From: Candidatus Dojkabacteria bacterium
GTDB taxonomy: Bacteria; Patescibacteriota; Dojkabacteria; J137
NCBI GenBank assembly: GCA_025999215.1
Contig: AP024679.1
Location: 779,916 to 843,915, forward strand
Length of the DNA stretch: 64,000 nt
Reading direction: 5' to 3'
In this document: in pieces, positions 5,482 through 55,895 of the stretch
Position numbering within the stretch: the first letter of the stretch is position 1
Layout: every line of letters starts with the position of its first letter
Notes under the pieces: model-generated
Database searches by the model: none
What the model was told of the DNA's origin: nothing
The model's input: only the letters and a program-made list of their open reading frames with translations
Made by a program: the position numbers and the translations under genes

Positions 5482-7329
5482 ATGTGTGGAATTGTTGGAT
5501 ACACTGGAACCAAATTAGAGGGCATCATTGAAAAAATGAATCAAGCTATCATTCATCGTGGCCCAAATGATAGCGCATACATAAAACACCCAAACTTTCA
5601 TCTGGGTTTTAGAAGATTATCAATAGTTGACCTTTCAAAAAATATTTATCCAATAAAAAATGAATCAAAAAACATTGAACTTTTCCTGAACGGAGAAATT
5701 TATAATTACAAAGAATTAAGAAATCTTTTAGAAAAAAAAGGACATGTTTTTAAAACTAACTCTGACTCAGAAGCAATAGTTCATGGTTACGAAGAGTGGG
5801 GAGAAAATGTTGTTGAAAAATTGAGGGGAATGTTTGCCTTCACACTACTTGATCGAACAAAAAATGAACTTTTCATTGCTCGCGATAGGCTAGGCATAAA
5901 ACCTTTTTATTTTACAAATTTTAAAAATAGAATAATTTTTGCGTCAGAAATTAAAGCCATATTAACAGGCTTTGATATTCAAAGAAAAATTGATGAGCTA
6001 ACTTTGTTTAGATTTTTGACATCAAGGGTGCACGATATTGAAAATGAAACTTTCTTTGAAAATATTAAAAGCCTTCCTCGAGGGCATTACATGAAAATAA
6101 AACCTGATGGAAATTTCACTGTAACTAAGTATTGGCATCCAACCTACAATTCTAATTTTAAATCTAGCAAAAAAGATAGCGAATATGCAAGTGAGTTTTT
6201 GGAAAAACTAACTGAAACTATACGAATTCATTTAATCGGTGATGTCCCGGTCGGTGTTACACTGTCGGGTGGTCTTGATTCGAGTGGAATTACATCTCTT
6301 GCACATAAAATTTATACAGAGGAATACGGCAAAGCTAACATGTTTGCGTTTTCGGCAGTTCATCCAGGAGAAACTGTTGATGAAACAGAATATATTGATT
6401 CCGTTGTCAAAAGTACTGGTGTTGAGTCTGTGAAAATTCAACCAAAAGTTGAAAATTTTTGGAATGATTTAGACTCTTGGATGTACTATCAGGAAGAACC
6501 TGTAATAAGTGGCGCTCCATATGCATACAGTGTTGTAATGAAGGAAGCAAGTAAAAAAGTTACAGTTTTATTAAGCGGTCAAGGTGGAGACGAATTACTC
6601 GCCGGATACATTCCTTATTTTATGTCATATTTTAAGTCTGCGCTAAATTCTGGAAATTACTGGAGCGCGATTAGGGAAATATTCATGGGTGAAGATTTGT
6701 ATTGGGGATTTGCTATAAAAAAATTCATACAAAAATTAAATTTGAAAAATGTGCTCTCCTCTGATTCACTTCTTAATGAAAATTTTTATAAAACATATAA
6801 CGGAAATCAATTTAAATTTAAAAACTTTGATAATTTAAACGCAAGATTGTTTGAAGATGTAACATCAAGCACAACCCCTGCACTTCTCAGGTATGAAGAT
6901 AAAAACTCAATGAGCCATTCGCTAGAATCTCGCGTTCCTCTACTAGATCACGAAATGGTAGAATTTATTTTCAATTTACCAATTGATCAAAAAATTAAAT
7001 TTGGATGGAATAGGTTTGTGTACAGAAATGCACTCAAAGGAATAATCCCAGAAAAAAATAGAAAAAGAAGAAGTAAAATTGGGTTTACAAATCCAGAATG
7101 GGAATGGATAGAAAGGAAAGCCGATAAATTTAGAGAAATTTTTCAATCTGATAGTTTCAAAAGCAGACCTTATTGGAATGCAGAAAATGTTTTAACTAAT
7201 TTTAATTTGATGTTAAAAAATAAAATCTCTGGTGATCCTCTTTATTTTTGGAGAATTTTTATTTCAGAAATTTGGATGCAAAACTACATTGACAATTTTA
7301 ACACTCCAAAAACAATAAAAAGCAATTAA
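5482..7329 (+). CDS. asnB: Asparagine synthetase (glutamine-hydrolysing)
   Basis: MCGIVGY N-terminal nucleophile; SGGLDSS PP-loop; 615 aa. Confidence 0.85.
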   Translation: MCGIVGYTGTKLEGIIEKMNQAIIHRGPNDSAYIKHPNFHLGFRRLSIVDLSKNIYPIKNESKNIELFLNGEIYNYKELRNLLEKKGHVFKTNSDSEAIVHGYEEWGENVVEKLRGMFAFTLLDRTKNELFIARDRLGIKPFYFTNFKNRIIFASEIKAILTGFDIQRKIDELTLFRFLTSRVHDIENETFFENIKSLPRGHYMKIKPDGNFTVTKYWHPTYNSNFKSSKKDSEYASEFLEKLTETIRIHLIGDVPVGVTLSGGLDSSGITSLAHKIYTEEYGKANMFAFSAVHPGETVDETEYIDSVVKSTGVESVKIQPKVENFWNDLDSWMYYQEEPVISGAPYAYSVVMKEASKKVTVLLSGQGGDELLAGYIPYFMSYFKSALNSGNYWSAIREIFMGEDLYWGFAIKKFIQKLNLKNVLSSDSLLNENFYKTYNGNQFKFKNFDNLNARLFEDVTSSTTPALLRYEDKNSMSHSLESRVPLLDHEMVEFIFNLPIDQKIKFGWNRFVYRNALKGIIPEKNRKRRSKIGFTNPEWEWIERKADKFREIFQSDSFKSRPYWNAENVLTNFNLMLKNKISGDPLYFWRIFISEIWMQNYIDNFNTPKTIKSN

Positions 7330-7353
7330 ATATTTTTTGCTATAATCTTTTGC

Positions 7354-8505
7354 ATGAATGAAGAACTATTGAGTCTAAAATTCCCTATTGTAGGTTTATC
7401 TCCGATGGATGGAGTTACTGATACTGCTTTTCGTCAAGTTGTAAAATCAAAAAGTAATCCTGATATTGTTTTTACTGAGTTTGTGCATGTTAGAGCTCTG
7501 ACAGAAGCAACAGGAAATGTAATTAAAATGTTAGATTACGAAGAAATTGAAAGACCAATTTTTGCACAAATTTATGGATCAGATCCCGAATATTTTTACC
7601 ACATTGCTAAGCTTGTTGTGGCGCTTGGTTTTGATGGGGTTGATATAAACATGGGTTGCCCTGCAAAAAATGTAGCAAGCAGCGGGGCAGGGGCAGCTTT
7701 AATAAAAACTCCAATCAAAGCTCAAGACATTATAAAAGCTACAAAGCAAGGCGTTGAGGATTGGGTAAGCAATGGTAAATTAACAGGATTATCAAACAAG
7801 TCATTAGAAATAGTAAAGAGACAAATTGAAAAAAACAGACAAAAATTTTTAAAAATTGAAAAAAGTATAAGTGCAATTTCAAATGGCCAAAAAAATCTTT
7901 TGGGGCTAAGAACTTTAGTACCAGTTACAGTCAAAACTCGTATTGGTTATGATTCAATTGTTACAGAAGAGTGGATTGAGAATTTAGTTAAAGCTAATCC
8001 TTACTGGATTGCTATACATGGAAGAACCTTAAAACAAATGTATAATGGAGAAGCAAACTGGAATGAACTTAAAAAAGCGGTTCAAATTAGCCCAATTCCG
8101 ATCATAACTAATGGTGATGTAAAAACTTTTTTTGATATAGAGCGGATGTTAAATTTTACTGGAAGTAGCGGTGTATTGGTTGGAAGGGCAAGTTTTGGAA
8201 ACCCATGGATATTTCAAAATCCTAAAATGTTGCAAGAAAAAATTAAAAATACTAAACAAGCCTATGAAATTATTAAAAATGTGATAATTGAACATTCTCA
8301 AATCCATACTCAAAGTAAATCTAACCCCAAAGAATTTTTTCAAATGAGAAAACACTTTGGTTGGTACTGTAAAACTTTGCAATCGTGGTTTAATTATTTA
8401 AAGCAAACTCGAGCAAAGGCTGGAAAATTCTCTAGTGTAAAAGACTTAAAAATAGCTTTAATGAAGGTAAGCAGTATTGAAGAAGTTATTGAAATATTAT
8501 CTTAA
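7354..8505 (+). CDS. dus: tRNA-dihydrouridine synthase
   Basis: LSPMDGVTDTAFRQ...; TIM-barrel Dus signature region; 383 aa. Confidence 0.8.
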   Translation: MNEELLSLKFPIVGLSPMDGVTDTAFRQVVKSKSNPDIVFTEFVHVRALTEATGNVIKMLDYEEIERPIFAQIYGSDPEYFYHIAKLVVALGFDGVDINMGCPAKNVASSGAGAALIKTPIKAQDIIKATKQGVEDWVSNGKLTGLSNKSLEIVKRQIEKNRQKFLKIEKSISAISNGQKNLLGLRTLVPVTVKTRIGYDSIVTEEWIENLVKANPYWIAIHGRTLKQMYNGEANWNELKKAVQISPIPIITNGDVKTFFDIERMLNFTGSSGVLVGRASFGNPWIFQNPKMLQEKIKNTKQAYEIIKNVIIEHSQIHTQSKSNPKEFFQMRKHFGWYCKTLQSWFNYLKQTRAKAGKFSSVKDLKIALMKVSSIEEVIEILS

Positions 8506-8509
8506 TTTT

Positions 8510-9865
8510 TTAACCAACACTTCCCTTCATGCTCATCCTTATCAAATCATTCATTTCCATAGCATACTCCATTGGCAGCTCTTTTGCAATTGGTTCCACA
8601 AAACCTGATACTATTAATCCTCCTGCTTCCTCTTCGCTCAATCCTCTACTTGTTAAATAATACAATTGATTTTCTGATATTTTTGAAACGCTTGCTTCGT
8701 GCTCCACTCTACCTGTATTTTCATAAATTTCGTTATACGGATAAGTATCCGTTTGGGAGTCATCGTCAAGTATCAAGGCATCGCAAATTACTTTAGTTTT
8801 TGAATTTTGAGAGCTTTGTGAAACCTTCACTAAACCTCTATAGCTTGTTCTTCCGCCATTTTTACAAATTGATTTTGTAGTAATTACACCTGATGTATTT
8901 TTACCAATGTGAATCATTTTGGCACCACTATCAATGTGTTGCCCGTTGTCGGCCATAGAAACCGAAAGAACTTCACCACGAGCATTATTTCCAACAAGTA
9001 TGACGCTTGGATATTTCATAGTAACTCTAGATCCCAAATTACAATCAACCCATTCAATGACTGCATCCTCATATGCTAAACCTCGCTGAGTAACTAAGTT
9101 ATAAACATTTTTTGACCAATTCTGAACAGTCGTGTATCTAATTCTTGCACCCTTCAGTGCAATCAATTCAATAACCCCTGAGTGTAAAATATCAGAACTA
9201 TATGTTGGAGCGGAACAACCTTCAACATATTGAACCTCTGATCCTTCATCGGCAATTATTAAAGTTCTTTCGAATTGTCCTAAGTTTTGAGTTTGAATAT
9301 AAAAATACGCTTGAAGAGGAACTGTTACTTTTACACCTTTAGGAACATAAACAAAACTTCCTCCACTCCAAGCTGCAGTATTGAGGGCAGCATATTTATT
9401 ATCGGTATAGGGAATCGCTTTTCCAAAAAATTTTTTAAAAATTTCCTCATGTTCCTTAAGGCCAGTGTCTGTATCAGTAAAAATCACACCTTTGCTCTCC
9501 CACTGCTCTTTAATTCGTCCATAAACAACATTTGAATCATACTGAGTTTCTACTCCTGCCAAAAATTTTCTTTCAGCCTCTGGAATTTTTAATTCCTCAA
9601 AAGTTTTTTTCATATCAGTTGGAACTTCATCCCAGTTTCTGTTCTTCTTTGATCCGGGGACTACATAAAACCTTATATCCTCATCTTTTAACTGTGACAA
9701 ATCTGGACCCCACGTTGGAACTTTCCTTGAAACATAATGCTCATAAGCCTTCAATCTCAAATCTCTCATCCAAGTTGGTTCTTCTTTATAAACTGATATT
9801 GCCTCAATGACCTCTCTTGATAAACCAGGATTTTGTAAGATTTTTATTGCTTCGTTTTTGTTCAT
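8510..9865 (-). CDS. sufB: Fe-S cluster assembly protein SufB
   Basis: 451 aa; conserved SufB/D C-terminus ...HEASVSKISENQLYYLTSRGLSEEEAGGLIVSGF. Confidence 0.85.
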   Translation of the reverse strand: MNKNEAIKILQNPGLSREVIEAISVYKEEPTWMRDLRLKAYEHYVSRKVPTWGPDLSQLKDEDIRFYVVPGSKKNRNWDEVPTDMKKTFEELKIPEAERKFLAGVETQYDSNVVYGRIKEQWESKGVIFTDTDTGLKEHEEIFKKFFGKAIPYTDNKYAALNTAAWSGGSFVYVPKGVKVTVPLQAYFYIQTQNLGQFERTLIIADEGSEVQYVEGCSAPTYSSDILHSGVIELIALKGARIRYTTVQNWSKNVYNLVTQRGLAYEDAVIEWVDCNLGSRVTMKYPSVILVGNNARGEVLSVSMADNGQHIDSGAKMIHIGKNTSGVITTKSICKNGGRTSYRGLVKVSQSSQNSKTKVICDALILDDDSQTDTYPYNEIYENTGRVEHEASVSKISENQLYYLTSRGLSEEEAGGLIVSGFVEPIAKELPMEYAMEMNDLIRMSMKGSVG

Positions 9866-9873
9866 AACACAAT

Positions 9874-10980
9874 CTAAATTTCTAGCTGAACTTCAACTTC
9901 ATCCAAAATTGATTCTTGTAGAGTTATTGGATCTTTTTCAAGTAAAATTAAAAAAATGCTACCACTCACTTCATCATCTGTTATTTCAAACTCTTCAACG
10001 AATGTTGGAATTTGACCAGTTACATTTTCAAAAAATATTGATTTTTCTGCGATAGTATTCTCATTCTGATCTACTATTCTAACTAAAATCATTTTATTAG
10101 CAAAATCACTAACTTGGCCTGTTACTAAAATTGGATTTGAAACTACATCCCCACTCTTAGGTAATGTAAAACTTCCTACCGTACTTGTACCAAGGTTCGG
10201 ATTAAACTCTGTATTATTCTCATTAAATAATACAGGTATTCTCTCTAACTCTTGGCTAGAATTAAGATTTCTTACAATTATGTAACCTTGATTAGCTTGA
10301 ATATCATCGGGTAGCGTCAAAGTCACAAACCAATTACTAGTGTTGGAATCATATACTTCTGTATCTAACACAGTTTCTTGTTCATCTGTTAGTGATACTT
10401 CTAAAATTAGTTCCATATTCTTGTTACCTTCAACTTTAAAAGTTCCAAATACAACATCACCGCTTTTCGGTGAAGTAACAGTTATTAAATTATTTTCAAC
10501 TTGATTATTTGAAAATGCATCATCTTCTGTTTGACTATCGTTTGTATTTAAATTAGAATCACTTTCCTTTTCAAAAAAATTTATATATATAAACGCCCCA
10601 ACAATTCCCAACAACACGCAAAATACAAACACAACAAACAGCCTAAAAAATCTACCTAAAAAACCTCCTTTCTTTTCTTTTTTTTGCGTAGGAGGAGTAT
10701 TTAAATTTTGTTCATTAATTAAATTTTGATTAGTATTTACCTTTGAAAAGTTAGGATTAGGTGTAACAACCGGCTGAGCACTTCCAACTTGCGGAGGAGC
10801 CACTGGTTGTGAAAAGTTTGGTTGAAAATTTTGATTTTGCCCTGCCGATTGAGGCGCAACAAAATTTTGTTGAGCTTGTAGGTTGCCATTTTGATTGTTT
10901 AATGATTGATTTCCACCATTCATCATATCTAGCGGGTCATTTGAGTTTGAGGGTTGAGGGTTAAGCTTAGGATCGGCCAT
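9874..10980 (-). CDS. Bitopic membrane protein: Q/N-rich cytoplasmic N-terminus, one TM, two extracellular Gmad2-like Ig-fold repeats
   Basis: About 110 aa of N/Q/P low complexity, then the TM FFRLFVVFVFCVLLGIVGAFIYI, then the repeats ITVTSPKSGDVVFGTFKVEG / FTLPKSGDVVSNPILVTGQVSDF. Confidence 0.5.
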   Translation of the reverse strand: MADPKLNPQPSNSNDPLDMMNGGNQSLNNQNGNLQAQQNFVAPQSAGQNQNFQPNFSQPVAPPQVGSAQPVVTPNPNFSKVNTNQNLINEQNLNTPPTQKKEKKGGFLGRFFRLFVVFVFCVLLGIVGAFIYINFFEKESDSNLNTNDSQTEDDAFSNNQVENNLITVTSPKSGDVVFGTFKVEGNKNMELILEVSLTDEQETVLDTEVYDSNTSNWFVTLTLPDDIQANQGYIIVRNLNSSQELERIPVLFNENNTEFNPNLGTSTVGSFTLPKSGDVVSNPILVTGQVSDFANKMILVRIVDQNENTIAEKSIFFENVTGQIPTFVEEFEITDDEVSGSIFLILLEKDPITLQESILDEVEVQLEI

Positions 10981-11040
10981 AAAATTTTTATAATAATTTA
11001 ATTTTATGAAATATTACCAGAAAAAGTAAGCTTTGAAAAT

Positions 11041-11553
11041 CTAAAATTCATGCAATTTCTTGCCATTTATTTTTAACCAATTTCTTGCGTCTTTGTAAGA
11101 TGGAAATATACTTTCTAACAAATTCCAAAAATGTCTAGAGTGATTCATATGTTTTAGATGCGCAACTTCATGAGCACAAACATAATCTAAAATTTCTTTG
11201 GGAGTAAGCACAAGCCTCCAACAAAAATTTAAATTTCTTTTGGAGGAGCAGCTACCCCACCTTGAAATTGTATCTTTAATGTAAATTTGATTGTAATTTT
11301 CTCCAATCAACTCCGCAAAATAATTAACTCTCTTTTCAATTATTTTTTTTGCTTCTTGCCTAAAATAATTTTCTAAAATTTCACTGTAAGTTTGCACACT
11401 ATCAAAAGCGCGAAAGACTTTAAGTGTTTTACCTGATTTAATTACAAATGACTTTAAAGTGGGAGTTTGAATAAAAGTAATAGTACATTTTTCTCCCAAA
11501 AAACAAATTTCTGAATTGTTTTTAAAATTTATGTTTTTTCTATACCGTCTCAT
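11041..11553 (-). CDS. YgjP/DUF45 (M48/SprT-like) zinc metallohydrolase
   Basis: HEVAHLKHMNHSRHFW motif; 170 aa. Confidence 0.6.
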   Translation of the reverse strand: MRRYRKNINFKNNSEICFLGEKCTITFIQTPTLKSFVIKSGKTLKVFRAFDSVQTYSEILENYFRQEAKKIIEKRVNYFAELIGENYNQIYIKDTISRWGSCSSKRNLNFCWRLVLTPKEILDYVCAHEVAHLKHMNHSRHFWNLLESIFPSYKDARNWLKINGKKLHEF

Positions 11554-13578
11554 TTACCGTCTCATTGACTCAACAAAATAACGAGCTTTTAATTCTTCCT
11601 TAATTAAATTTTCTCTGATTTTTTGATATTTGAAAACTAACTTTATCAAATAATCACGAATATTAGAATTTAAAAGCCCTACAATAAAGATAATTATAGA
11701 CAAAATAATTTGAAACGGCCAAACATAAATCACTGTTCTTTGTTCTATCTCCATTGGTGTTGCTAATTTGTAAAATTCTGGTTCTTTATATGGATTTGAA
11801 CTAATTCCCAAGATTTGTTGTTCTTGATTTTTTTCAATGTATTCGTCTTTTGTGTCTAAAATTAATCCCAAATCACTCGTCTTTCTGGGCATAATTCTTA
11901 AAGATTCATCATACCTAGAAACTATTCCTACAACTCGGATCTTATCTCCTTTTGACTTTTCAAATTCTATATCAGCATTGCTAGATAATTTTACCTTGGT
12001 AACAAATCCATTACTCTCTAAATCAAAACTACTTGAATAATTTTTGGTGATTATTCCTTCAATTTGAACTAATGATCCAATTATTTCATCATCAATAGAA
12101 AAAACTTTTGGAAGATGCAAATTAAATGTAGGTTTTTCATTTAACAAAACTAACTCTTTTGCCTTAATTTCAGTTTCTCTATGATAAGTATTAGTTTCTC
12201 CAATAATTTCTAAATAGTCACCCTCTTTTAAATCTGTATTATTTTCTATTTCTACGCGTATACCCCCAGTGTTATCTTGAATATAAATTCTGTTGGGATA
12301 TAAAACATCTTTTTCAGAGGTTATTATTCCTCTGACTTTAACTAAGCTCTCTTTGCTTTGTTGCTTAACATATTTAACTTCTTTCAACTCAATATTTGGT
12401 TTTTGTGGATTTTGTTGATTGGGTGTAAGTATATTTTGAGATATTAAAAAATTTTCTTTGAAATCATAAGGATAATATAAAATTGCACTATGACCTTTAC
12501 TGGTGTTACCATAACGAACTTCGCTTATTAAACTGCCAAACTTATCAAATATTCCAAGTTGATCACCATTATTGTTTAAAGTTATATTCAAATCATCTAG
12601 CAATAAATATTTTTTAGGTTGTAAAATTGTTTTAGGAAAAAGGTAGGATTTTTCTGCCCAAAATTCATCGTTTTTTTCAGATAATTTCATACCTTCTAAA
12701 TTTATTTCAAAATTAGAATTATTAAAAATCTCCACCCACTCTTTTTCTCCTGATTGTGGTGAAGGATAAACTTCAGTTATATAAATCTCAGGGTAAGCAC
12801 TAATCACTAACCCGTTTGATTCCAAAATTTGATCATTAATTAATGCAGTTATACTTCCTTTAAAAGGCACGTAAAAAGTAAGCGGGAAAGTAACTTCAGA
12901 CCCACCTATGTACCATTTGGCATCTAACTGGTCTTGACCTAAAAATACTTTTGCATCAACTTGAACGGGAGTGTAACTTTCTAAAGATTCTGACCATTCA
13001 TCGCCATCTTTGGTAAATAAAATTTTAGGTTCATTAACAATAGCAACACAATTGTTGTTAAAATGAAAATTTTCTAAACCGGGAGAACTTGATGTTGGAT
13101 GAAATTTTAATTCTGCACACTCCGGATTTTTTTTATAGCCCAATCTTTCTAGACTTTTGCCAGAAACTGTTGATGAATAATTTATACTATCTATTTCAAC
13201 ATCATTTGCATCAATTAAAAATACGCTAGATTCTGAATTAAAGAGATTAATATCATCATCTAATAAAATTAAATTATTTAAACCATTTGCAAAATTATCC
13301 TCATTAGCTAACACAATATATGAATTACCTTCTATAAAAATATTTGGCAAGTTAATCGTTCTTTCTGAATTTGAACTTGAGATGGATTTAATTTTATAGT
13401 TACTTAATTCTAAACTTTCATCACCGTAATTCCAAAGTTCTACCCATTCTTTACCTGAATCGCTTCCATCAGGATTTGGGAAAATTTCGTTAATTACAAT
13501 TGAAGGGGCGTTTTGCTGAGCATAAACAACTATAAAAATATTAAAGAAAATTACAAGAGCTAATATAAACTTTTTCAT
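11554..13578 (-). CDS. Secreted lamin-tail-domain (LTD) protein with two LTDs, two OB-fold-like segments and a C-terminal TM anchor. The likely start is Met 13578; the ORF track extends it to 13656
   Basis: Signal peptide MKKFILALVIFFNIFIVVYAQ; LTD signatures IVINEIFPNPDGSDSGKEWVELWN and YITEVYPSPQSGEKEWVEIFN; C-terminal hydrophobic helix. Confidence 0.6.
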   Translation of the reverse strand: MKKFILALVIFFNIFIVVYAQQNAPSIVINEIFPNPDGSDSGKEWVELWNYGDESLELSNYKIKSISSSNSERTINLPNIFIEGNSYIVLANEDNFANGLNNLILLDDDINLFNSESSVFLIDANDVEIDSINYSSTVSGKSLERLGYKKNPECAELKFHPTSSSPGLENFHFNNNCVAIVNEPKILFTKDGDEWSESLESYTPVQVDAKVFLGQDQLDAKWYIGGSEVTFPLTFYVPFKGSITALINDQILESNGLVISAYPEIYITEVYPSPQSGEKEWVEIFNNSNFEINLEGMKLSEKNDEFWAEKSYLFPKTILQPKKYLLLDDLNITLNNNGDQLGIFDKFGSLISEVRYGNTSKGHSAILYYPYDFKENFLISQNILTPNQQNPQKPNIELKEVKYVKQQSKESLVKVRGIITSEKDVLYPNRIYIQDNTGGIRVEIENNTDLKEGDYLEIIGETNTYHRETEIKAKELVLLNEKPTFNLHLPKVFSIDDEIIGSLVQIEGIITKNYSSSFDLESNGFVTKVKLSSNADIEFEKSKGDKIRVVGIVSRYDESLRIMPRKTSDLGLILDTKDEYIEKNQEQQILGISSNPYKEPEFYKLATPMEIEQRTVIYVWPFQIILSIIIFIVGLLNSNIRDYLIKLVFKYQKIRENLIKEELKARYFVESMRR

Positions 13579-13676
13579 TTGGGTATAGTAAGAATTTAAT
13601 TGAAGATAACACTCAAAGTTAAAAATTTCTTTGTAACTTAATACAAATTGTTTCAAAAAAATTTGCTGGAGATCAT

Positions 13677-16855: not shown

Positions 16856-17464
16856 TTATTTTGTGTTAGAATTTTTGTTTTTGATGAAAAAAAGAATTAA
16901 AGCTGCATCAATGGTCAGTAAACCTATTAGTAAGTAGAAGTAATCATATAATTGAAATGATGTATCAGGTAAAACATCATTGGTTACTGTGTAATTCCCA
17001 ACAGTTCCAGTCAAATCGTAAGTATTCGTGCCATCACTCATTTCTGCTGTAGGCCCATATGAAATACTTGCATTGCCAGTTGATTCTCCTTGCACCACGA
17101 AGGAACCAATTTGCTGATTTTGGGCAAAAACTGAAGTTGCTGCAATCGAAAAGCATACCTCATTATCGTTAAAACTTGCTCCACCAGTTGAACACCCAAA
17201 AGAAGTTAAAATATTACCTCCACTAGCAGGTGTCGCGCTTACAACTTTAAGCGGAGAAGGTACCAGCAAATGCACAGTAGCACCATTGGTTCCACTTGGA
17301 TCTGTAACAATAATATTAATCTGTGTTTGTGATGCTGTCGAAAGAGTACCTGAGGAAGGAGATAAAGAATAAGATTGAGCCAATACGCTGTGCAAACCAA
17401 ATAAAGAAAAAATTATAATTAAAATTGGTAAAAACTTAATTGTTTTAAAAATTTTAGCTATCAT
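16856..17464 (-). CDS. Small secreted S/T/G-rich beta-sandwich protein (Ig/cohesin-like?) with a C-terminal anchor: LPDTS, then a hydrophobic helix, then a basic tail
   Basis: Signal peptide; an approximately 140-aa S/T/G-rich domain; C-terminus ...VLPDTSFQLYDYFYLLIGLLTIDAALILFFIKNKNSNTK. Confidence 0.5.
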   Translation of the reverse strand: MIAKIFKTIKFLPILIIIFSLFGLHSVLAQSYSLSPSSGTLSTASQTQINIIVTDPSGTNGATVHLLVPSPLKVVSATPASGGNILTSFGCSTGGASFNDNEVCFSIAATSVFAQNQQIGSFVVQGESTGNASISYGPTAEMSDGTNTYDLTGTVGNYTVTNDVLPDTSFQLYDYFYLLIGLLTIDAALILFFIKNKNSNTK

Positions 17465-17502
17465 ATCTAAATTTTATATTTTATATTATATCTTTGCAAA
17501 TT

Positions 17503-18288
17503 TTATTTTTTTATTTCACTACAATCCAGTTTACCATAAAACAAAGCAAATTTAGACAAATCAATTAAATTTATTACACCATCGTTATTAATATCTTGAC
17601 TTCCGCAAGAAGAGGAAGTGATCTCTTTGCTGTTAGTACATCTTTTGTTGTAACTGTTAGCAAAAGATGCTAAATCAACAAGATCAAGTTTAGAATTACC
17701 ATCTACATCCAAAGGTTTACACTCACCTATATCTACTAGCACAGGTTCTTCAAATGTTGGTGTAATACAAAATTCATTTATAAACTCAGAGTTTGCTGTA
17801 ACTGTTGTATTGGTATAACTAGAATATTTTGTTGTACACAAACCGTTTGGTCCACTATTTGCCGTACCAGGAGGGCATCCAACACACTTTAAACCTTCAG
17901 ATCCTTTACACTGATCCCATCCTTTCTCCCTTTCATATACATTACAAGACGCCCCTATTCCTAGTTCTGAAAAACCTCCTTTATCACAATCACTCGGGCA
18001 ATTATTATGATTTTCACCAGCCTCGCAAAGCCTATTTTTGTTACAGCCACCCTTTGCGCCACCTGAACATTTAGCACATTCCCCCCTCACACATGCATTA
18101 TATCCAGCCACGTAATCACCATTATAGTTTTCACAATTTGGGCCCTCACAACAATTGTTATCCGCTGCTGAGCTGTCGGAAATTTCATTATTTTGCATCA
18201 AAAAAACTGCACCCAAAAAAATCAAAACAATACTTAAATTGACTATAAGCAAAAAAACTATAAAATCTTTAAATTTATATTTTTTCAT
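17503..18288 (-). CDS. Cys-rich secreted protein with a C-terminal type-I dockerin-like tandem repeat
   Basis: N-terminal signal/TM; many Cys (CEAGENHNNCPSDC...); C-terminal DVDGNSKLDLVDLASFANSY and DINNDGVINLIDLSKFALFYG repeats. Confidence 0.6.
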   Translation of the reverse strand: MKKYKFKDFIVFLLIVNLSIVLIFLGAVFLMQNNEISDSSAADNNCCEGPNCENYNGDYVAGYNACVRGECAKCSGGAKGGCNKNRLCEAGENHNNCPSDCDKGGFSELGIGASCNVYEREKGWDQCKGSEGLKCVGCPPGTANSGPNGLCTTKYSSYTNTTVTANSEFINEFCITPTFEEPVLVDIGECKPLDVDGNSKLDLVDLASFANSYNKRCTNSKEITSSSCGSQDINNDGVINLIDLSKFALFYGKLDCSEIKK

Positions 18289-27310: not shown

Positions 27311-27793
27311 ATGAGAAAAAACGAACAACAAAACATTACCATAGCCATAATATTCGGTTTAATTACATTTTTGGGAGTTTTGGCTTATCTTTTTATAAAA
27401 GGTGACGCTGAAATCGTAGTTATTAGAACAAATGCAAATATCGAAAATGAATTTGTTGATAATTATATAAACGCATCTGATAGCAAATATGGTGATAAAT
27501 TTATTGAAGATAGCACAAAAGAAGGTAAAAGTGTTATATATTTCTCTTCTAAATGGTGCGGTATTTGTAATGCCTTTAAAAATTCCTTTTACGTTGAATT
27601 TGAAGAAAAGGCACAAACTAAAATAAATTTGATTGAAGCAGATATTAACATTAATTCGTTATCTAGCCAAAAATTCGAAGTAGGCGATGTTCCAACAGTT
27701 GTGTTTATTGAAGATGGAGTTGTTATAAAAAAATATGAAAATTTCAAACTTGATCAGATTCCAGCTATAGTTGCTGAAGTTTTAGAAAACTAA
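27311..27793 (+). CDS. Membrane-anchored thioredoxin-fold protein
   Basis: N-terminal TM; WCGICNAF CxxC motif. Confidence 0.6.
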   Translation: MRKNEQQNITIAIIFGLITFLGVLAYLFIKGDAEIVVIRTNANIENEFVDNYINASDSKYGDKFIEDSTKEGKSVIYFSSKWCGICNAFKNSFYVEFEEKAQTKINLIEADININSLSSQKFEVGDVPTVVFIEDGVVIKKYENFKLDQIPAIVAEVLEN

Positions 27794-49342: not shown

Positions 49343-51679
49343 ATGTTTCAAAGAAAGAGTATTTTAAAAATTTGTTTTTTCTTTCTTTTTGTTTTCATTT
49401 TTTTACATCCAGAAAATATTAGTGCAGCCGAGGTTCCCTGCGGTGAACCAGGTAGTGATTGTGGAGGAAGTGGAGGTGGAAGTGGACCTATTTGTGGAAA
49501 TGGAAGCTGTGAAGCTGGAGAAAGTTGTAGTACTTGTTCTCAAGATTGTGGTTCTTGTTGCACACCAAGTTACCCATCAGCGCCTTCTCCATACGCTCCT
49601 AGTAATGGAGCAACAGTAAATTCTTTAACACCAACACTATACTGGAATATGTATGGAACTTTCGGGACTGGATGTCCACAGATTAACGCTTTTAGAGTTT
49701 TTTTATCTTCCAATTGTTCATCATTTTCTGATATTAGTGGAGCATTAAACGAATCTATAAGATCTTTCACTATACCATCAGGTATCCTTCAATGGAATCG
49801 AACTTATTGCTGGTATGTTATAGCAACTAATAATTCATATGGAGCACAGTCTAGTACTTTTAGATTTACAACCCAGCAAGGATCAATGCTTACATCAGAC
49901 ACAGTAACAGGAGATGTTTGCGGTAACGGTATCTCTGGTAGACCTGATCAATCTAATGTTTCTAACCCTGTTACTTTTAATTTTTCTTTTTCTCAAGCTC
50001 CCTCCTCTTCTTTCGTTGAAGCTAGACTCGCTCTTCTACCGGCCTCTGGCCCTTTTGCTGAAAATAGAGATGTTGTTGATTATGCCACCATACAAAACAA
50101 AGTTATTAGTTCTCAATCTTTTGCCGCTCGATATAACTTATCTGATTCTACAGCTCAAATTTTACTTCCTAATGGCCCTTCCTATTCTTGGTCTTCTCCT
50201 TCTTCTTCAGGTTCACTCTCTAATGGCTTTAATAACTCTAGTTTGCTTAATATTAACATTGATTCTTTTGCTACTTCCTCTACTAATTGGAATGCTCAAT
50301 TTAATGTCCGTTTTGAAAACTCTTTTCCTAGCGGTGTTTACAATCTCTATGCTTACGTTCTTTACAATAACGGATCTAATACTCTAACCGCTTATGGTTC
50401 ACCTGGCGTTTACAATTACAAAAAATTATCTACTGTTTGGGTTGTTGATATGGATGCTCCTTCTGCTTCCATCTCTTCTCCTACCGCATATGAAACTAAT
50501 TTATTTGGCGTTAACTGGTCTGCTACTGATACTAATGGCATTCAAAATGTTTTTAGCTACATTTATTCTGATACTAATGGCGCTACCATTAGAGATAGAA
50601 CTAATCCTTCTACTCCTTTTGATATTGTTACTGATGGTAATCCTAAATCTTATCCTGCTGACACCCCTAATGCTGGTATCAATACTCTTAATCTTGGTGA
50701 GCATCTTTACTCTGATCTCACTCCTTCTCTGAATGCTCAATATGTTTTCAGGCTTTATGCTCAGGATAATGCTTGCAATATTTCTGAAACTTCTAGAAGT
50801 GTATCTATCTCTGATCCTTGGGTCTTATCTTATGACAATACCATTTCTGTTAATTCTGGCTTTAATTCTTTATCTATACCTGAAGTTTCTAACTTCACCG
50901 TTCCTTTTACTTCTGATACATCGGGTCCTTTCTTGAATAACTTTGCTACCATTAGCGGCAATTCCAATACTCCTGCTCTAAGAAATTCTAAAATTAATGC
51001 CTACTCTATCAATTATCTTAACTTAGCTACTTCTTTACCTCCTGATTCTTCCTTTTCTTCTTGGTTTAACTATTTACTTAATCTTGTTTCTCTTAACTCT
51101 CCCTCTAGTATTGTTAACTTTAATGTACCTAACAACTCAGTATCTGGTAATCTCTCTCAAATATTTAATGTATCTCCTAACTCCAAATATGTTCTTATTC
51201 AAAGTAACTCTCTTGATTTAAATTTACTTTCTAATTCTGTTTGTGATATTAAAGCTTTAATTTTTTTAAGCGGTAATTTATCTATTCAACCTGACTTAAC
51301 TAAATCTAACCCTAGCAATGGATGTATATTCATAACTGCTGGTAATACGCTAATCGGAAAAGGTTCAGATAAAACTTCTGCTTCTTTGTCTGATTCTAAT
51401 CCTGCTCAATATGACATTGTAGAAGCTGGCATTATTACCAACAACTTAGATATTCCTGTTGATGCTATTGGAGGGGCTACTGCTGAGTACAACAAGTGGG
51501 ATGGTATTTATATTTTTGGTCTTGTTTACTCTTCTAATCTTTCTTTAAATCGCGATCTTAATTCTTTTGCTAACAATTTACAGCCTGCTCATATGTTTAG
51601 GTTTGATCCTTCTTTGCTTATTAATTTCCAAAATGATCTTGCTAAACGCTCTTTCTCTATTAGGGAATTTGTTAAATAA
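49343..51679 (+). CDS. Large secreted Cys-rich/FN3-like S/T/N-rich surface protein (paralog A)
   Basis: Signal peptide; CGNGSCEAGESCSTCSQDCGSCC module; strongly TCT/T-rich codon usage; 778 aa; no TM. Confidence 0.7.
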   Translation: MFQRKSILKICFFFLFVFIFLHPENISAAEVPCGEPGSDCGGSGGGSGPICGNGSCEAGESCSTCSQDCGSCCTPSYPSAPSPYAPSNGATVNSLTPTLYWNMYGTFGTGCPQINAFRVFLSSNCSSFSDISGALNESIRSFTIPSGILQWNRTYCWYVIATNNSYGAQSSTFRFTTQQGSMLTSDTVTGDVCGNGISGRPDQSNVSNPVTFNFSFSQAPSSSFVEARLALLPASGPFAENRDVVDYATIQNKVISSQSFAARYNLSDSTAQILLPNGPSYSWSSPSSSGSLSNGFNNSSLLNINIDSFATSSTNWNAQFNVRFENSFPSGVYNLYAYVLYNNGSNTLTAYGSPGVYNYKKLSTVWVVDMDAPSASISSPTAYETNLFGVNWSATDTNGIQNVFSYIYSDTNGATIRDRTNPSTPFDIVTDGNPKSYPADTPNAGINTLNLGEHLYSDLTPSLNAQYVFRLYAQDNACNISETSRSVSISDPWVLSYDNTISVNSGFNSLSIPEVSNFTVPFTSDTSGPFLNNFATISGNSNTPALRNSKINAYSINYLNLATSLPPDSSFSSWFNYLLNLVSLNSPSSIVNFNVPNNSVSGNLSQIFNVSPNSKYVLIQSNSLDLNLLSNSVCDIKALIFLSGNLSIQPDLTKSNPSNGCIFITAGNTLIGKGSDKTSASLSDSNPAQYDIVEAGIITNNLDIPVDAIGGATAEYNKWDGIYIFGLVYSSNLSLNRDLNSFANNLQPAHMFRFDPSLLINFQNDLAKRSFSIREFVK
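49891..51679. repeat. Copy 1 of an approximately 1.8-kb direct repeat: about 98% identical to copy 2 over the first 1.1 kb and about 90% over the last 0.7 kb
   Basis: Direct visual alignment of 49891.. with 54106.. at a constant offset of 4215. Confidence 0.9.
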
Positions 51680-53362: not shown

Positions 53363-55895
53363 ATGAAAAAAAAATCTATAAATATTTTTTTCTTGTTTAT
53401 TTTTTTGTTTATATTTTTTGGATTATTTAGTAGTTTACAATTTCCAACAATAAAAATTCCAAACGTTTACGCATATAATGTTGGTATAAAAACCTATTAC
53501 GTTTGTTGTACTCCACGTAATGGATATGCAGCACAGTTTGGAAAAACCTGTTATTATTCCGAGACAACTGGTGAAGAAGTATATTGTGAAAGCGATGATT
53601 ATCAAATAAGTGGATGTGTGCATTATAGACCTGATATTTGTTCCGCTGGCGGTGGCGGTGGAGGCGGTGGTGGGCCTATTTGCGGTGATGGTTGGTGTGA
53701 AGGAACTGAAAACTGCAACAATTGTGTGGCTGATTGTGGACAATGTTGTAATCCAATTGAACCTTTACCTGTCAATTTGATTGGGCCTGCTAACAATAGC
53801 ATTGTGAATTCAACCACAGTAACTTTTTCATGGGATAATTCTCCTAGTTGGAGAGATTGTGGTTGGACACCAAGGTATTTAAGTTTATGGTTATCATCCA
53901 CTTGTCAACCTGGTAGCTATAGCTACATTGCTGCTACACCTGATATACCTGCTGGTTCAAATTTTGGACCTAATTCTTCGAGTTTTACTTATTCAGGATT
54001 ATCTTGGAATACAACTTATTGTTGGTATGTGAGAAGATTAAATGGTGGAAATAAATCTGCTCATACACCAATATGGCAATTCACTGTATCTAATCAGTCT
54101 TTACTTACATCAGACACAGTAACAGGAGATGTTTGCGGTAACGGTATCTCTGGTAGACCTGATCAATCTAATGTTTCTAACCCTGTTACTTTTAATTTTT
54201 CTTTTTCTCAAGCTCCCTCCTCTTCTTTCGTTGAAGCTAGACTCGCTCTTCTACCGGCCTCTGGCCCTTTCGCTGAAAATAGAGATGTTGTTGATTATGC
54301 CACCATTCAAAACAAAGTTATTAGTTCTCAATCTTTTGCCGCTCGTTATAACTTGTCTGATTCTACAGCTCAAGTTTTACTTCCTAATGGCCCTTCCTAT
54401 TCTTGGTCTCCTCCTGCTTCTTCAGGTTCACTCTCTAATGGCTTTAATAACTCTAGTTTGCTTAATATCAACATCGATTCTTTTGCTACTTCCTCTACTA
54501 ATTGGAATGCTCAATTTAATGTTCGTTTTGAAAACTCTTTTCCTAGCGGTGTTTACAATCTCTATGCTTACGTTCTTTACAATAACGGATCTAATACTCT
54601 AACCGCTTATGGTTCACCTGGCGTTTACAATTACAAAAAATTATCTACTGTTTGGGTTGTTGATATGGACGCTCCTTCTGCTTCCATCTCTTCTCCCACT
54701 GCATATGAAACTAATTTATTTGGCGTTAACTGGTCTGCTAGTGATACTAATGGCATTCAAAATGTTTTTAGCTATATTTATTCTGATACTAATGGCGCTA
54801 CTATCAGAGATAGAACTAATCCTTCTACTCCTTTTGATATTGTTACTGATGGTAATCCTAAATCTTATCCTGCTGACACTCCTAATGCTGGTATTACTAC
54901 CAGCAATCTTGGTGAACACTTTTACTCTGATCTTACTCCTTCTCTGGATGCTCAATATGTTTTTAGGCTTTATGCTCAAGATAGTGCTTGCAATATTTCT
55001 GAGACTTCTAGAAGCGTATCTATTTCTGATCCTTGGCTTTTATCTTATGACAATACCATATCTGTTAATTCTGGCTTTAATTCTCTATCTATACCTGAGG
55101 TTTCTAACTTTACCGTTCCTTTTACCTCTGATACATCTGGTCCTTTTTTGAATAACTTTGCTACCATTAGTGGTAATTCCAATACTCCTGCTACTTAGAA
55201 ATTCTAAAATTAATGCTTACTCTACCAACTACCTTAACTTAGCTACTTCCCTACCTCCTGATTCTTCCTTTTCTTCTTGGTTTGATTATTTACTTAATCT
55301 TGTTTCTCTTAATTCTCCCTCAAATATTGTTAACTTTAACGTACCTAATAACTCAGTATCTGGTAATCTTTCTCAAATCTTTAATGTTTCTCCTAATTCT
55401 AAATATATCCTTATTCAAAGTAATTCTAGTGATCTAAATTTACTTCCTAACACTGTTTGTGATATTCAAGCTCTAATCTTTCTAAATGCAAACTTATCTA
55501 TTCAACCTAATTTGATCAAATCTAACCCTAGCAACGGTTGTATATTCATAACTGCTGGTAATACTCTAATCGGTAAAGGTACTGATAAAACTTCTGCTTC
55601 TTTGTCTGACTCTAACCCTGCTCAATATGACATTGTAGAAGCTGGCATTATTACCAACAACCTAGATATTCCTATTGATGTTGTTGGAGGGGCAACTGCT
55701 GAATACAACAAATGGGATGGTATTTATATTTTTGGTGTTGTTTACTCTTCTAATCTCTCTCTAAATCGTGACCTTAATTCTTTTGCTAACAACTTACAGC
55801 CTGCTCACATGTTTAGATTTGACCCTTCTATTCTTATTAATTTTCAACATGATCTTGCTAATCGCTCTTTCTCTGTTAGGGAAATTGTTGAGTAG
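53363..55895 (+). pseudogene. Paralog B of the surface protein, with a distinct N-terminal domain and a poly-Gly linker. It is interrupted by a +1 frameshift and TAG at 55196..55198, then continues in another frame to 55895
   Basis: Track ORFs 53363..55198 and 55158..55895 together align to gene A. There is a 1-nt indel (gctacttag versus gctctaag) at the identity breakpoint. Confidence 0.6.
54106..55895. repeat. Copy 2 of the approximately 1.8-kb direct repeat
   Basis: See copy 1. Confidence 0.9.

Follow-up and report, generated by a model that had tools for sequence, protein, structure and literature searches.

The gene pair and its genomic setting

Two neighbouring genes on the minus strand of a stretch of low-GC DNA (64,000 nucleotides, GC ~31%; the whole analysed stretch is called the window below) encode a 261-amino-acid (aa) protein that ends in a dockerin and a 202-aa protein that is cohesin-like by predicted structure. 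An exact-sequence look-up returned both at 100% identity from the metagenome-assembled genome (MAG) KatS3mg085 of a Candidatus Dojkabacteria bacterium (862,240-bp contig), where GenBank labels each of them 'hypothetical protein'. Dojkabacteria are members of the Candidate Phyla Radiation (CPR). An earlier note on this DNA had suggested that the two proteins form a pair tethering a Cys-rich protein to the cell surface; the two open reading frames (ORFs) lie where it placed them and are co-directional, on the minus strand, which it had left unsaid. The features of the pair are as follows.

17503..18288, minus strand: ORF of the 261-aa protein with the dockerin, the putative cargo (BCX14245.1, KatS3mg085_777)
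18163..18288, minus strand: N-terminal signal or transmembrane segment, aa 1-42, read from the sequence, with a probable signal peptidase I site between DSSAA and D
17722..18162, minus strand: Cys-rich putative cargo domain, aa 43-189, with 16 Cys located in the sequence, including the knot-like CEAGENHNNCPSDC
17506..17721, minus strand: dockerin module, aa 190-261, with two Ca-loop/helix repeats and four bracketing Cys (C190, C217, C228, C256), from Pfam and from PDB sequence and fold matches
17674..17709 and 17560..17595, minus strand: 12-residue Ca loops of the dockerin repeats, from the loop pattern
16856..17464, minus strand: ORF of the 202-aa protein, the putative cohesin-like surface anchor (BCX14244.1, KatS3mg085_776)
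17378..17464, minus strand: Sec signal peptide, aa 1-29, read from the sequence, with predicted cleavage between VLA and QS; AQS is kept in close homologues
16976..17377, minus strand: predicted cohesin-like beta-sandwich, aa 30-163, with the conserved Cys pair C91/C104, from AlphaFold2 and Foldseek
16859..16972, minus strand: C-terminal sorting signal, namely LPDTS (16958..16972), a hydrophobic helix and a basic tail, from the sequence and a family-wide motif count

The pair sits in a minus-strand run that comprises an FKBP, signal peptidase I, the N- and C-terminal subunits of transketolase, the dockerin protein, the cohesin-like protein, methionyl-tRNA synthetase (MetRS) and prephenate dehydratase. 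The first 14 nt of the dockerin gene overlap the end of the gene for the transketolase C-terminal subunit, 38 nt separate the 261-aa and 202-aa genes, and the MetRS gene starts 19 nt beyond the 202-aa ORF. Given this tight packing, and since no terminator-like site was found on the minus strand between the pair and its neighbours, the two genes are likely to be co-transcribed within the housekeeping run.

The dockerin module

The C-terminal module of the 261-aa protein is a dockerin. Both repeats quoted in the earlier note, DVDGNSKLDLVDLASFANSY and DINNDGVINLIDLSKFALFYG, occur verbatim in the ORF, and their loops, DVDGNSKLDLVD and DINNDGVINLID, carry D or N at all of the Ca-ligand positions (1, 3, 5, 9 and 12). 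The layout is that of a type I-like dockerin, in which repeats of about 22 residues stand in tandem and each consists of such a loop and a helix. A regular expression for dockerin loops, applied to the six-frame translation of the 64 kb, matches these two loops and nothing else in the window, and the repeats are therefore not a compositional artefact. The profile search with PF00404 (Dockerin_1) leads to the same identification, with a match to residues 194-245 at 23.1 bits (gathering cut-off 22.9, E=8.7e-5); equivalent modules at two of the related loci described below also pass this model (L011 with 25.4 bits, L005 with 23.1 bits). The dockerin 2y3n_B of Bacteroides cellulosolvens is both the top PDB sequence match of the 261-aa protein (E=1.3e-3) and the only meaningful fold match of its AlphaFold2 (AF2) model (TM-score 0.70, probability 0.96), in which the dockerin region reaches predicted local distance difference test (pLDDT) values of 72-83, with helices predicted at residues 203-211 and 241-248.

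Of the bracketing Cys residues, C190, C217 and C228 are invariant in nine of nine dockerins drawn from six independent protein types, and C256 is kept in all eight that reach it, the ninth (L012) being cut by a contig end. Positions 10/11 read L-V in one repeat and L-I in the other, a near-symmetry that makes a dual binding mode of the dockerin possible.

The fold and family of the 202-aa protein

The 202-aa protein had been described as a small, S/T/G-rich and beta-strand-patterned secreted domain, and this description holds: S, T and G make up 40% of the mature domain, for which a sandwich of about 130 aa is predicted, all-beta over residues 31-161. The AF2 model, built with an alignment of the 67-cluster family introduced below, has a pLDDT of 91.7 (87-98 per 10-residue block over residues 31-160), with a helix at 172-199. 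When it was compared with the PDB by Foldseek, the six best matches were all cohesins, in the order 2xdh, 2vo8, 2w1n, 5nrm_A, 3ul4_A and 2jh2_C. TM-scores normalised to the target range from 0.45 to 0.73 for the six and from 0.57 to 0.73 for the five single-module targets, 2w1n being a 228-residue two-module construct. The first match, 2xdh (E=4.3e-5, 11% sequence identity), is a non-cellulosomal cohesin of Archaeoglobus fulgidus; 2vo8, 2w1n and 2jh2 come from Clostridium perfringens, and 5nrm_A and 3ul4_A are type I cohesins. The top 36 matches are mostly cohesins, type II cohesins accounting for most of the thirty below the top six, and the folds of YcnI and CLIPPER domains are interleaved at slightly lower scores. 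Structure prediction thus gives the 202-aa protein a confident cohesin fold and not a non-cohesin one.

By sequence, the 202-aa protein would not be classed as a cohesin. The Pfam model PF00963 does not match the 202-aa protein itself, and it does match two of 68 members of its family (best E=3.2e-5); a phmmer search of the PDB with the 202-aa protein found no relative. The family was gathered by an exhaustive phmmer search (E<=1e-3) that yielded 67 representative clusters, all of 180-313 aa; this puts its size at no less than 67 clusters, and the counts given here refer to 68 members. C91 and C104 are conserved in at least 90% of them. We conclude that the 202-aa protein is cohesin-like by its modelled structure and belongs to a sequence family outside the reach of current profile libraries.

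Two other assignments were considered and set aside. The NCBIfam model NF053819 (EF2685/EF0750 sortase-dependent family) matches the 202-aa protein with E=1.3e-4 and weakly matches 8 of the 68 family members, but the score of 22.4 bits lies under the cut-off of 47, and the match covers mainly the C-terminal part, sorting signal included. As for a sortase-assembled pilin, the fold matches are to cohesins and not to CnaB/Ig pilins, and no YPKN-type motif was seen by eye (no formal scan was made).

Linkage of the two gene types across loci

Together with the window we compared 15 further loci, and nine genomic contexts could be assessed. L008 and L010 offer too little flanking sequence for a judgement, the neighbour at L010 being a truncated Cys-rich secreted protein. 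Genes of the cohesin-like family adjoin genes for four-Cys dockerin proteins in eight of the nine. Wherever the 261-aa family occurs, the cohesin-like gene directly follows the dockerin gene, and this order is kept both in L001 and L004, which share the housekeeping synteny, and in L002, L003 and L009, where the flanking genes are others altogether, so the pair moves as a unit. Distant family members (~30% identity) also have a Cys-bracketed dockerin next to them, carried by unrelated cargo:

L005/L006: three tandem cohesin-like genes, then a 757-aa beta-helix protein with a dockerin (Dockerin_1, 23.1 bits) and a 152-aa dockerin-only protein
L011: cohesin-like P0014, with a 437-aa protein made up of a cohesin-like module, transmembrane segments, a Kazal domain and a dockerin (25.4 bits)
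L012: cohesin-like P0016, with a Cys-repeat protein of >641 aa that ends in a dockerin
L015: a 394-aa cohesin-like gene, with a 1491-aa Kazal protein carrying a degenerate dockerin directly upstream

The types of cargo thus include a Cys-rich domain, a beta-helix and Kazal domains. When the window and the 15 loci were scanned with a dockerin profile, no match was more than three genes away from a cohesin-like gene; the scan is partly circular, as the profile was built from the same nine dockerins. Further scans of genome and metagenome contigs with the family alignments returned no additional related loci. Dockerins are not both numerous and partnerless here: the window has a single dockerin, which adjoins its only cohesin-like gene, and the two gene types travel together in relatives. 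A linkage that outlasts complete turnover of cargo and flanks is the pattern expected of interacting modules, and it is the strongest functional evidence we have: it supports a real receptor/ligand pair, whose binding we infer.

Several of these loci have features of their own. The 437-aa protein of L011 (P0087; 692..2005, plus strand) is a natural fusion of socket and plug, with two GxGxCExGE Cys motifs, a Kazal-like domain and a Cys-bracketed dockerin. In L015, a 192-aa protein beside P0015 (633..1211, plus strand) reaches 23.3 bits with Pfam Cohesin, whose cut-off is 24.1, and the 1491-aa Kazal/dockerin protein (6963..11438, minus strand) appears by eye to have a cohesin-like stretch near its N-terminus that neither profile confirms; several kinds of cohesin-type modules thus occur in these loci. 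The orphan cohesin-like gene of L013 (10001..10639) has an LPNTA signal and is flanked by genes for a Na/H exchanger and an M3 peptidase.

The C-terminal sorting signal

The C-terminal architecture claimed for the 202-aa protein in the earlier note is present, as LPDTS followed by the hydrophobic YFYLLIGLLTIDAALILFFI and the basic KNKNSNTK. A full signal, defined as [LIV]PxT[A/S/G], an uncharged stretch and a basic residue, was found in 41 of the 68 family members, with A (20), S (14) or G (7) in the fifth position of the pentapeptide. The motif itself occurs in 43 members, where 5.1 are expected from shuffled sequences (shuffle maximum 11), an excess of about 8-fold. A few family members give weak, below-cutoff matches to Gram_pos_anchor, TIGR01167, the 'LPxTATN sorting signal' model and the EF0750 sortase-dependent family. 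A sortase family has been reported in over half of CPR genomes (Meheust et al. 2019, PMC6744442). Attachment of the 202-aa protein to the wall by a sortase is plausible, with membrane anchoring by the C-terminal helix as the fallback. Of the 'anchored scaffold' suggested before, the surface-anchor signal stands and the word scaffold is overstated, since the protein is an anchor with one module, unlike a scaffoldin with several cohesins.

The Cys-rich protein

The 261-aa protein starts with a basic stretch and a hydrophobic stretch of ~23 residues, followed by DSSAADNN, the 16-Cys region and the C-terminal dockerin. Beyond the predicted signal cleavage site it has 20 Cys, 16 of them in residues 43-189 and four in the dockerin. 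Its family is small: five full-length homologues at 42-78% identity and a 95%-identical split copy in a sister MAG. Even a profile search brought its membership to no more than seven. All 16 Cys of the Cys-rich domain are invariant among the homologues, as are D38, S39, S40, A41 and A42. Neither Pfam nor NCBIfam has a match to the domain (aa 43-189), its AF2 model is unreliable (pLDDT ~50; 61.7 for the whole 261-aa model), and a fold search with that model gave nothing usable outside the dockerin. Motifs resembling CEAGENHNNCPSDC recur in two large secreted paralogues of the window and in the cargo of relatives.

The split copy lies at L004 6001..6787 in the sister MAG KatS3mg086, where the orthologue of the dockerin gene is divided into ORFs of 153 aa and 112 aa (GIW58834.1, GIW58835.1); this is a frameshift or an assembly error. 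At L002 (923..1351) and L003 (1035..1385) a small transmembrane-anchored, Cys-containing protein (142 aa and 116 aa) precedes the dockerin gene; the two share ECVxAGxPxxESYPExC, and the window has no such protein in that position.

A conserved sequence of the type [DS]xS[AV]A[DA] stands 6-12 residues downstream of the hydrophobic segment in every dockerin-bearing protein seen, and in the truncated Cys-rich neighbour at L010. Its conservation is striking, with the variants DSSAAD, DDSAAA, DSSAS, TSAAA, VSAAD and VSVAD. It occurs in the unrelated dockerin proteins of L005, L012, L015 and L011 as well as at L010; at L011 it is placed after an internal transmembrane segment. The regions concerned are:

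Window, 18163..18288, minus strand
L005, 9286 onwards
L012, 2721 onwards
L015, up to 11438
L010, 751 onwards
L011, 692 onwards

Probably the motif marks cleavage by signal peptidase. One more secreted protein of the window has a signal peptide that closes with ISAA before E.

A putative display pair and its alternatives

With moderate confidence we read the two genes as a minimal non-cellulosomal display pair of the cohesin-dockerin type, made up of a surface anchor and a captured Cys-rich cargo; it starts from what the analysis shows directly, namely which domains the two proteins have, the predicted fold, the sorting signal and the conserved gene linkage. The 202-aa protein would be exported by Sec, and its single cohesin-fold sandwich would be held at the cell surface via the C-terminal LPDTS signal, either through covalent attachment to the wall by a sortase whose gene lies in another part of the genome or, failing that, by the C-terminal transmembrane helix. 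The 261-aa protein would also be exported, probably freed from its N-terminal hydrophobic segment by signal peptidase between SAA and D, and oxidised, taking up a fold rich in disulfides; Cys numbers are even in both parts (16 + 4), as full pairing would require. Its Ca-binding dockerin would then bind the surface-anchored cohesin-like module, and the Cys-rich domain would thus be displayed outside the Dojkabacteria cell as cargo, most plausibly to bind something external, for example a host cell, a polymer or a protein.

The window also encodes, 9 kb from the pair (27311..27793, plus strand), a 160-aa protein with an N-terminal transmembrane helix and a thioredoxin domain containing WCGIC. 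It is a candidate extracytoplasmic disulfide oxidoreductase, which could oxidise the secreted proteins with many Cys; the 221-aa membrane protein adjoining it has no Pfam match.

Several results weigh against a cohesin-dockerin display pair. The 202-aa protein matches no Pfam family, Cohesin included, even at E<=1; its family profile found no cohesin among PDB sequences, and an hhalign comparison of that profile with the near-threshold Pfam-cohesin protein of L015 was negative, so that its relatedness to cohesins is argued from the fold. The dockerin exceeds the Pfam cut-off by just 0.2 bits. The hydrophobic segment of the 261-aa protein, at ~23 residues, is closer to a membrane anchor than to a signal peptide, and if it stays uncleaved, tethering through a cohesin would be partly redundant. 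One family member, P0023 (L013, Dojkabacteria GCA_020429495.1), is an exception to the linkage, with no dockerin within 10 kb. The pentapeptide ends in Ser, not in the Gly of the canonical class A signal; non-G variants serve other sortase classes. Finally, as had been said before, no sortase was detected in the 64-kb window, by phmmer with Staphylococcus aureus SrtA as query, by a TLxTC scan or by Pfam scans of the two ORFs of the pair and 30 others of the window.

The last two points would be accounted for if the domains were the same and the anchoring were by the membrane only: LPDTS would go unprocessed, for want of a cognate sortase in the 862-kb genome or because the motif is non-canonical, and the 202-aa protein would still capture the dockerin as a type I membrane protein. 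The 27 of 68 family members without a full signal, which have just a transmembrane helix and a longer cytoplasmic tail, agree with such an arrangement. Against it, the motif exceeds chance 8-fold and is placed exactly as in sortase substrates, and signals of the LPDTS/LPDTA type are used by class D sortases in Bacillus. Sortases are, moreover, widespread in CPR bacteria (PMC6744442), and we hold membrane-only anchoring to be rather unlikely, if worth keeping in mind. The missing sequence-level cohesin signal favours another explanation, according to which the 202-aa protein is a generic Ig-like or beta-sandwich surface protein anchored by a sortase (for example an adhesin or a wall protein), the dockerin binds another partner, such as a cohesin from elsewhere in the genome or a ligand on a host cell, and the linkage reflects co-regulation of surface proteins. 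YcnI and CLIPPER folds do score nearly as well, related loci do have other cohesin-type modules, such as the 192-aa protein of L015, and we know of no cohesin partner for many dockerins of non-cellulosomal organisms. Yet cohesins are the top-ranked fold, and the linkage persists while cargo and flanks change completely, unlike that of unrelated proteins that are merely co-regulated, which makes adjacency without direct binding improbable in our judgement.

That the C-terminal module might be a mere EF-hand-like Ca stabiliser, in a secreted disulfide-rich effector (toxin, bacteriocin or inhibitor) whose neighbour is an immunity or maturation factor, we regard as very improbable. EF-hand Pfam models weakly match the L011 dockerin module, EF-hand proteins occur among the weak PDB sequence matches, the cargo of relatives has Kazal inhibitor domains, and the Cys-rich domain has no assigned fold; but the architecture with two repeats, their spacing and the best matches all point specifically to a dockerin, and an exported beta-sandwich with a wall-sorting signal is unlike the architecture of an immunity protein.

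A wider proposal, which we advance tentatively and with some doubt, is that Dojkabacteria and related low-GC lineages possess a modular system for surface display of which this pair could serve as the type example. A divergent, unannotated cohesin-fold family with LPxT[A/S/G] signals would provide the universal socket, and a distinct disulfide-locked dockerin subtype with four Cys the plug; the plug would bear interchangeable secreted cargo (Cys-knot, Kazal, beta-helix), for host attachment or attack by these small-genome, probably episymbiotic cells.

Other large secreted proteins in the window

Two paralogous large secreted proteins, neither with a Pfam match, are encoded on the plus strand at 49343..51679 and 53363..55895. 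Both start with a signal peptide and CGNGxCExGExCxxCxxDC, which is like the motif inside the dockerin protein. The first is 778 aa long, and the second is split into ORFs of 611 aa and 245 aa. Their repeat blocks are 98% and 88% identical, and their spacing goes from 4215 nt in one case to 4216 nt in the other, so the second copy has had its reading frame shifted by an indel of 1 nt and represents either a pseudogene or an assembly error.

On the minus strand, at 11554..13656, a 700-aa protein with N- and C-terminal hydrophobic segments contains two lamin-tail domains (LTD, E=6.9e-29) and gives a below-cutoff match to a DUF5689/OB fold (28.0 bits against 28.6). This is a further large surface protein encoded in the vicinity of the pair.

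Implications

Dojkabacteria and other CPR bacteria, with their tiny genomes, are believed to live attached to other cells. Descriptions of how such cells assemble and arm their surface are few, and the proteins found there mostly carry the annotation 'hypothetical'. The pair is probably a known docking principle, that of cohesin and dockerin, in a divergent and so far unannotated form. If so, it provides a testable rule for which secreted proteins are displayed, namely those with a C-terminal four-Cys dockerin, and a function for a family, 67 clusters or more in size, that lies below the curated cut-offs of all Pfam and NCBIfam models. The cohesin-dockerin principle would then reach beyond polysaccharide degradation, into a lineage for which our literature search found no description of such a pair (CPR bacteria), and a small disulfide-stabilised cohesin-dockerin pair might find use in protein display.

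Comparison with known systems

A cellulosome was considered and rejected: the window has one cohesin-like module and one dockerin, the cargo matches no carbohydrate-active enzyme (CAZyme) or carbohydrate-binding module (CBM), and there is no multi-cohesin scaffoldin. Cohesin and dockerin domains have been counted across MAGs as a marker of polysaccharide degradation (PMC7038595). The likeness to the EF2685/EF0750 family (NF053819) consists in small secreted proteins with a C-terminal sortase signal.

The C. perfringens modules 2vo8, 2w1n and 2jh2, which are the second, third and sixth fold matches (target-normalised TM-score up to 0.73), share with the pair as proposed a non-cellulosomal use of cohesin and dockerin in assembling extracellular proteins, there secreted glycosidases and toxins. 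Their cohesins are internal modules of large multi-domain enzymes, whereas that of the pair would be a stand-alone surface anchor. The best structural match, the A. fulgidus cohesin 2xdh, provides a further parallel, as cohesin and dockerin occur there in an organism without a cellulosome and with little or no carbohydrate-degrading apparatus; non-cellulosomal modules of this kind were reportedly surveyed by Peer et al. in 2009. The two differ in sequence, with the 11% identity given above, and to our knowledge the A. fulgidus modules are recognisable by Pfam and are not arranged as an anchor with a sortase signal and an adjacent cargo gene.

The closest functional analogue is ScaE of Ruminococcus flavefaciens, whose dockerin partners are CttA, ScaB and group-4 dockerins. 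It combines, as is proposed for the pair, a single cohesin, a sortase-type signal and the capture of dockerin-bearing proteins, with clustered genes; cttA lies immediately upstream of scaE in the sca cluster. This small single-cohesin protein is linked to the envelope by sortase via LPXTG and captures dockerin proteins that include the non-enzymatic adhesion protein CttA (PMC5301203). Compared with ScaE, the pair has a cohesin-like module that PF00963 does not recognise and that carries a predicted conserved disulfide of its own, a dockerin without an X module and bracketed by four Cys, and a signal that reads LPDTS (LPxTA also occurs in the family). The putative cargo, a domain with 16 Cys, matches neither a CAZyme nor a CBM, no multi-cohesin scaffoldin accompanies it, and the host is a CPR bacterium with a genome of 862 kb.

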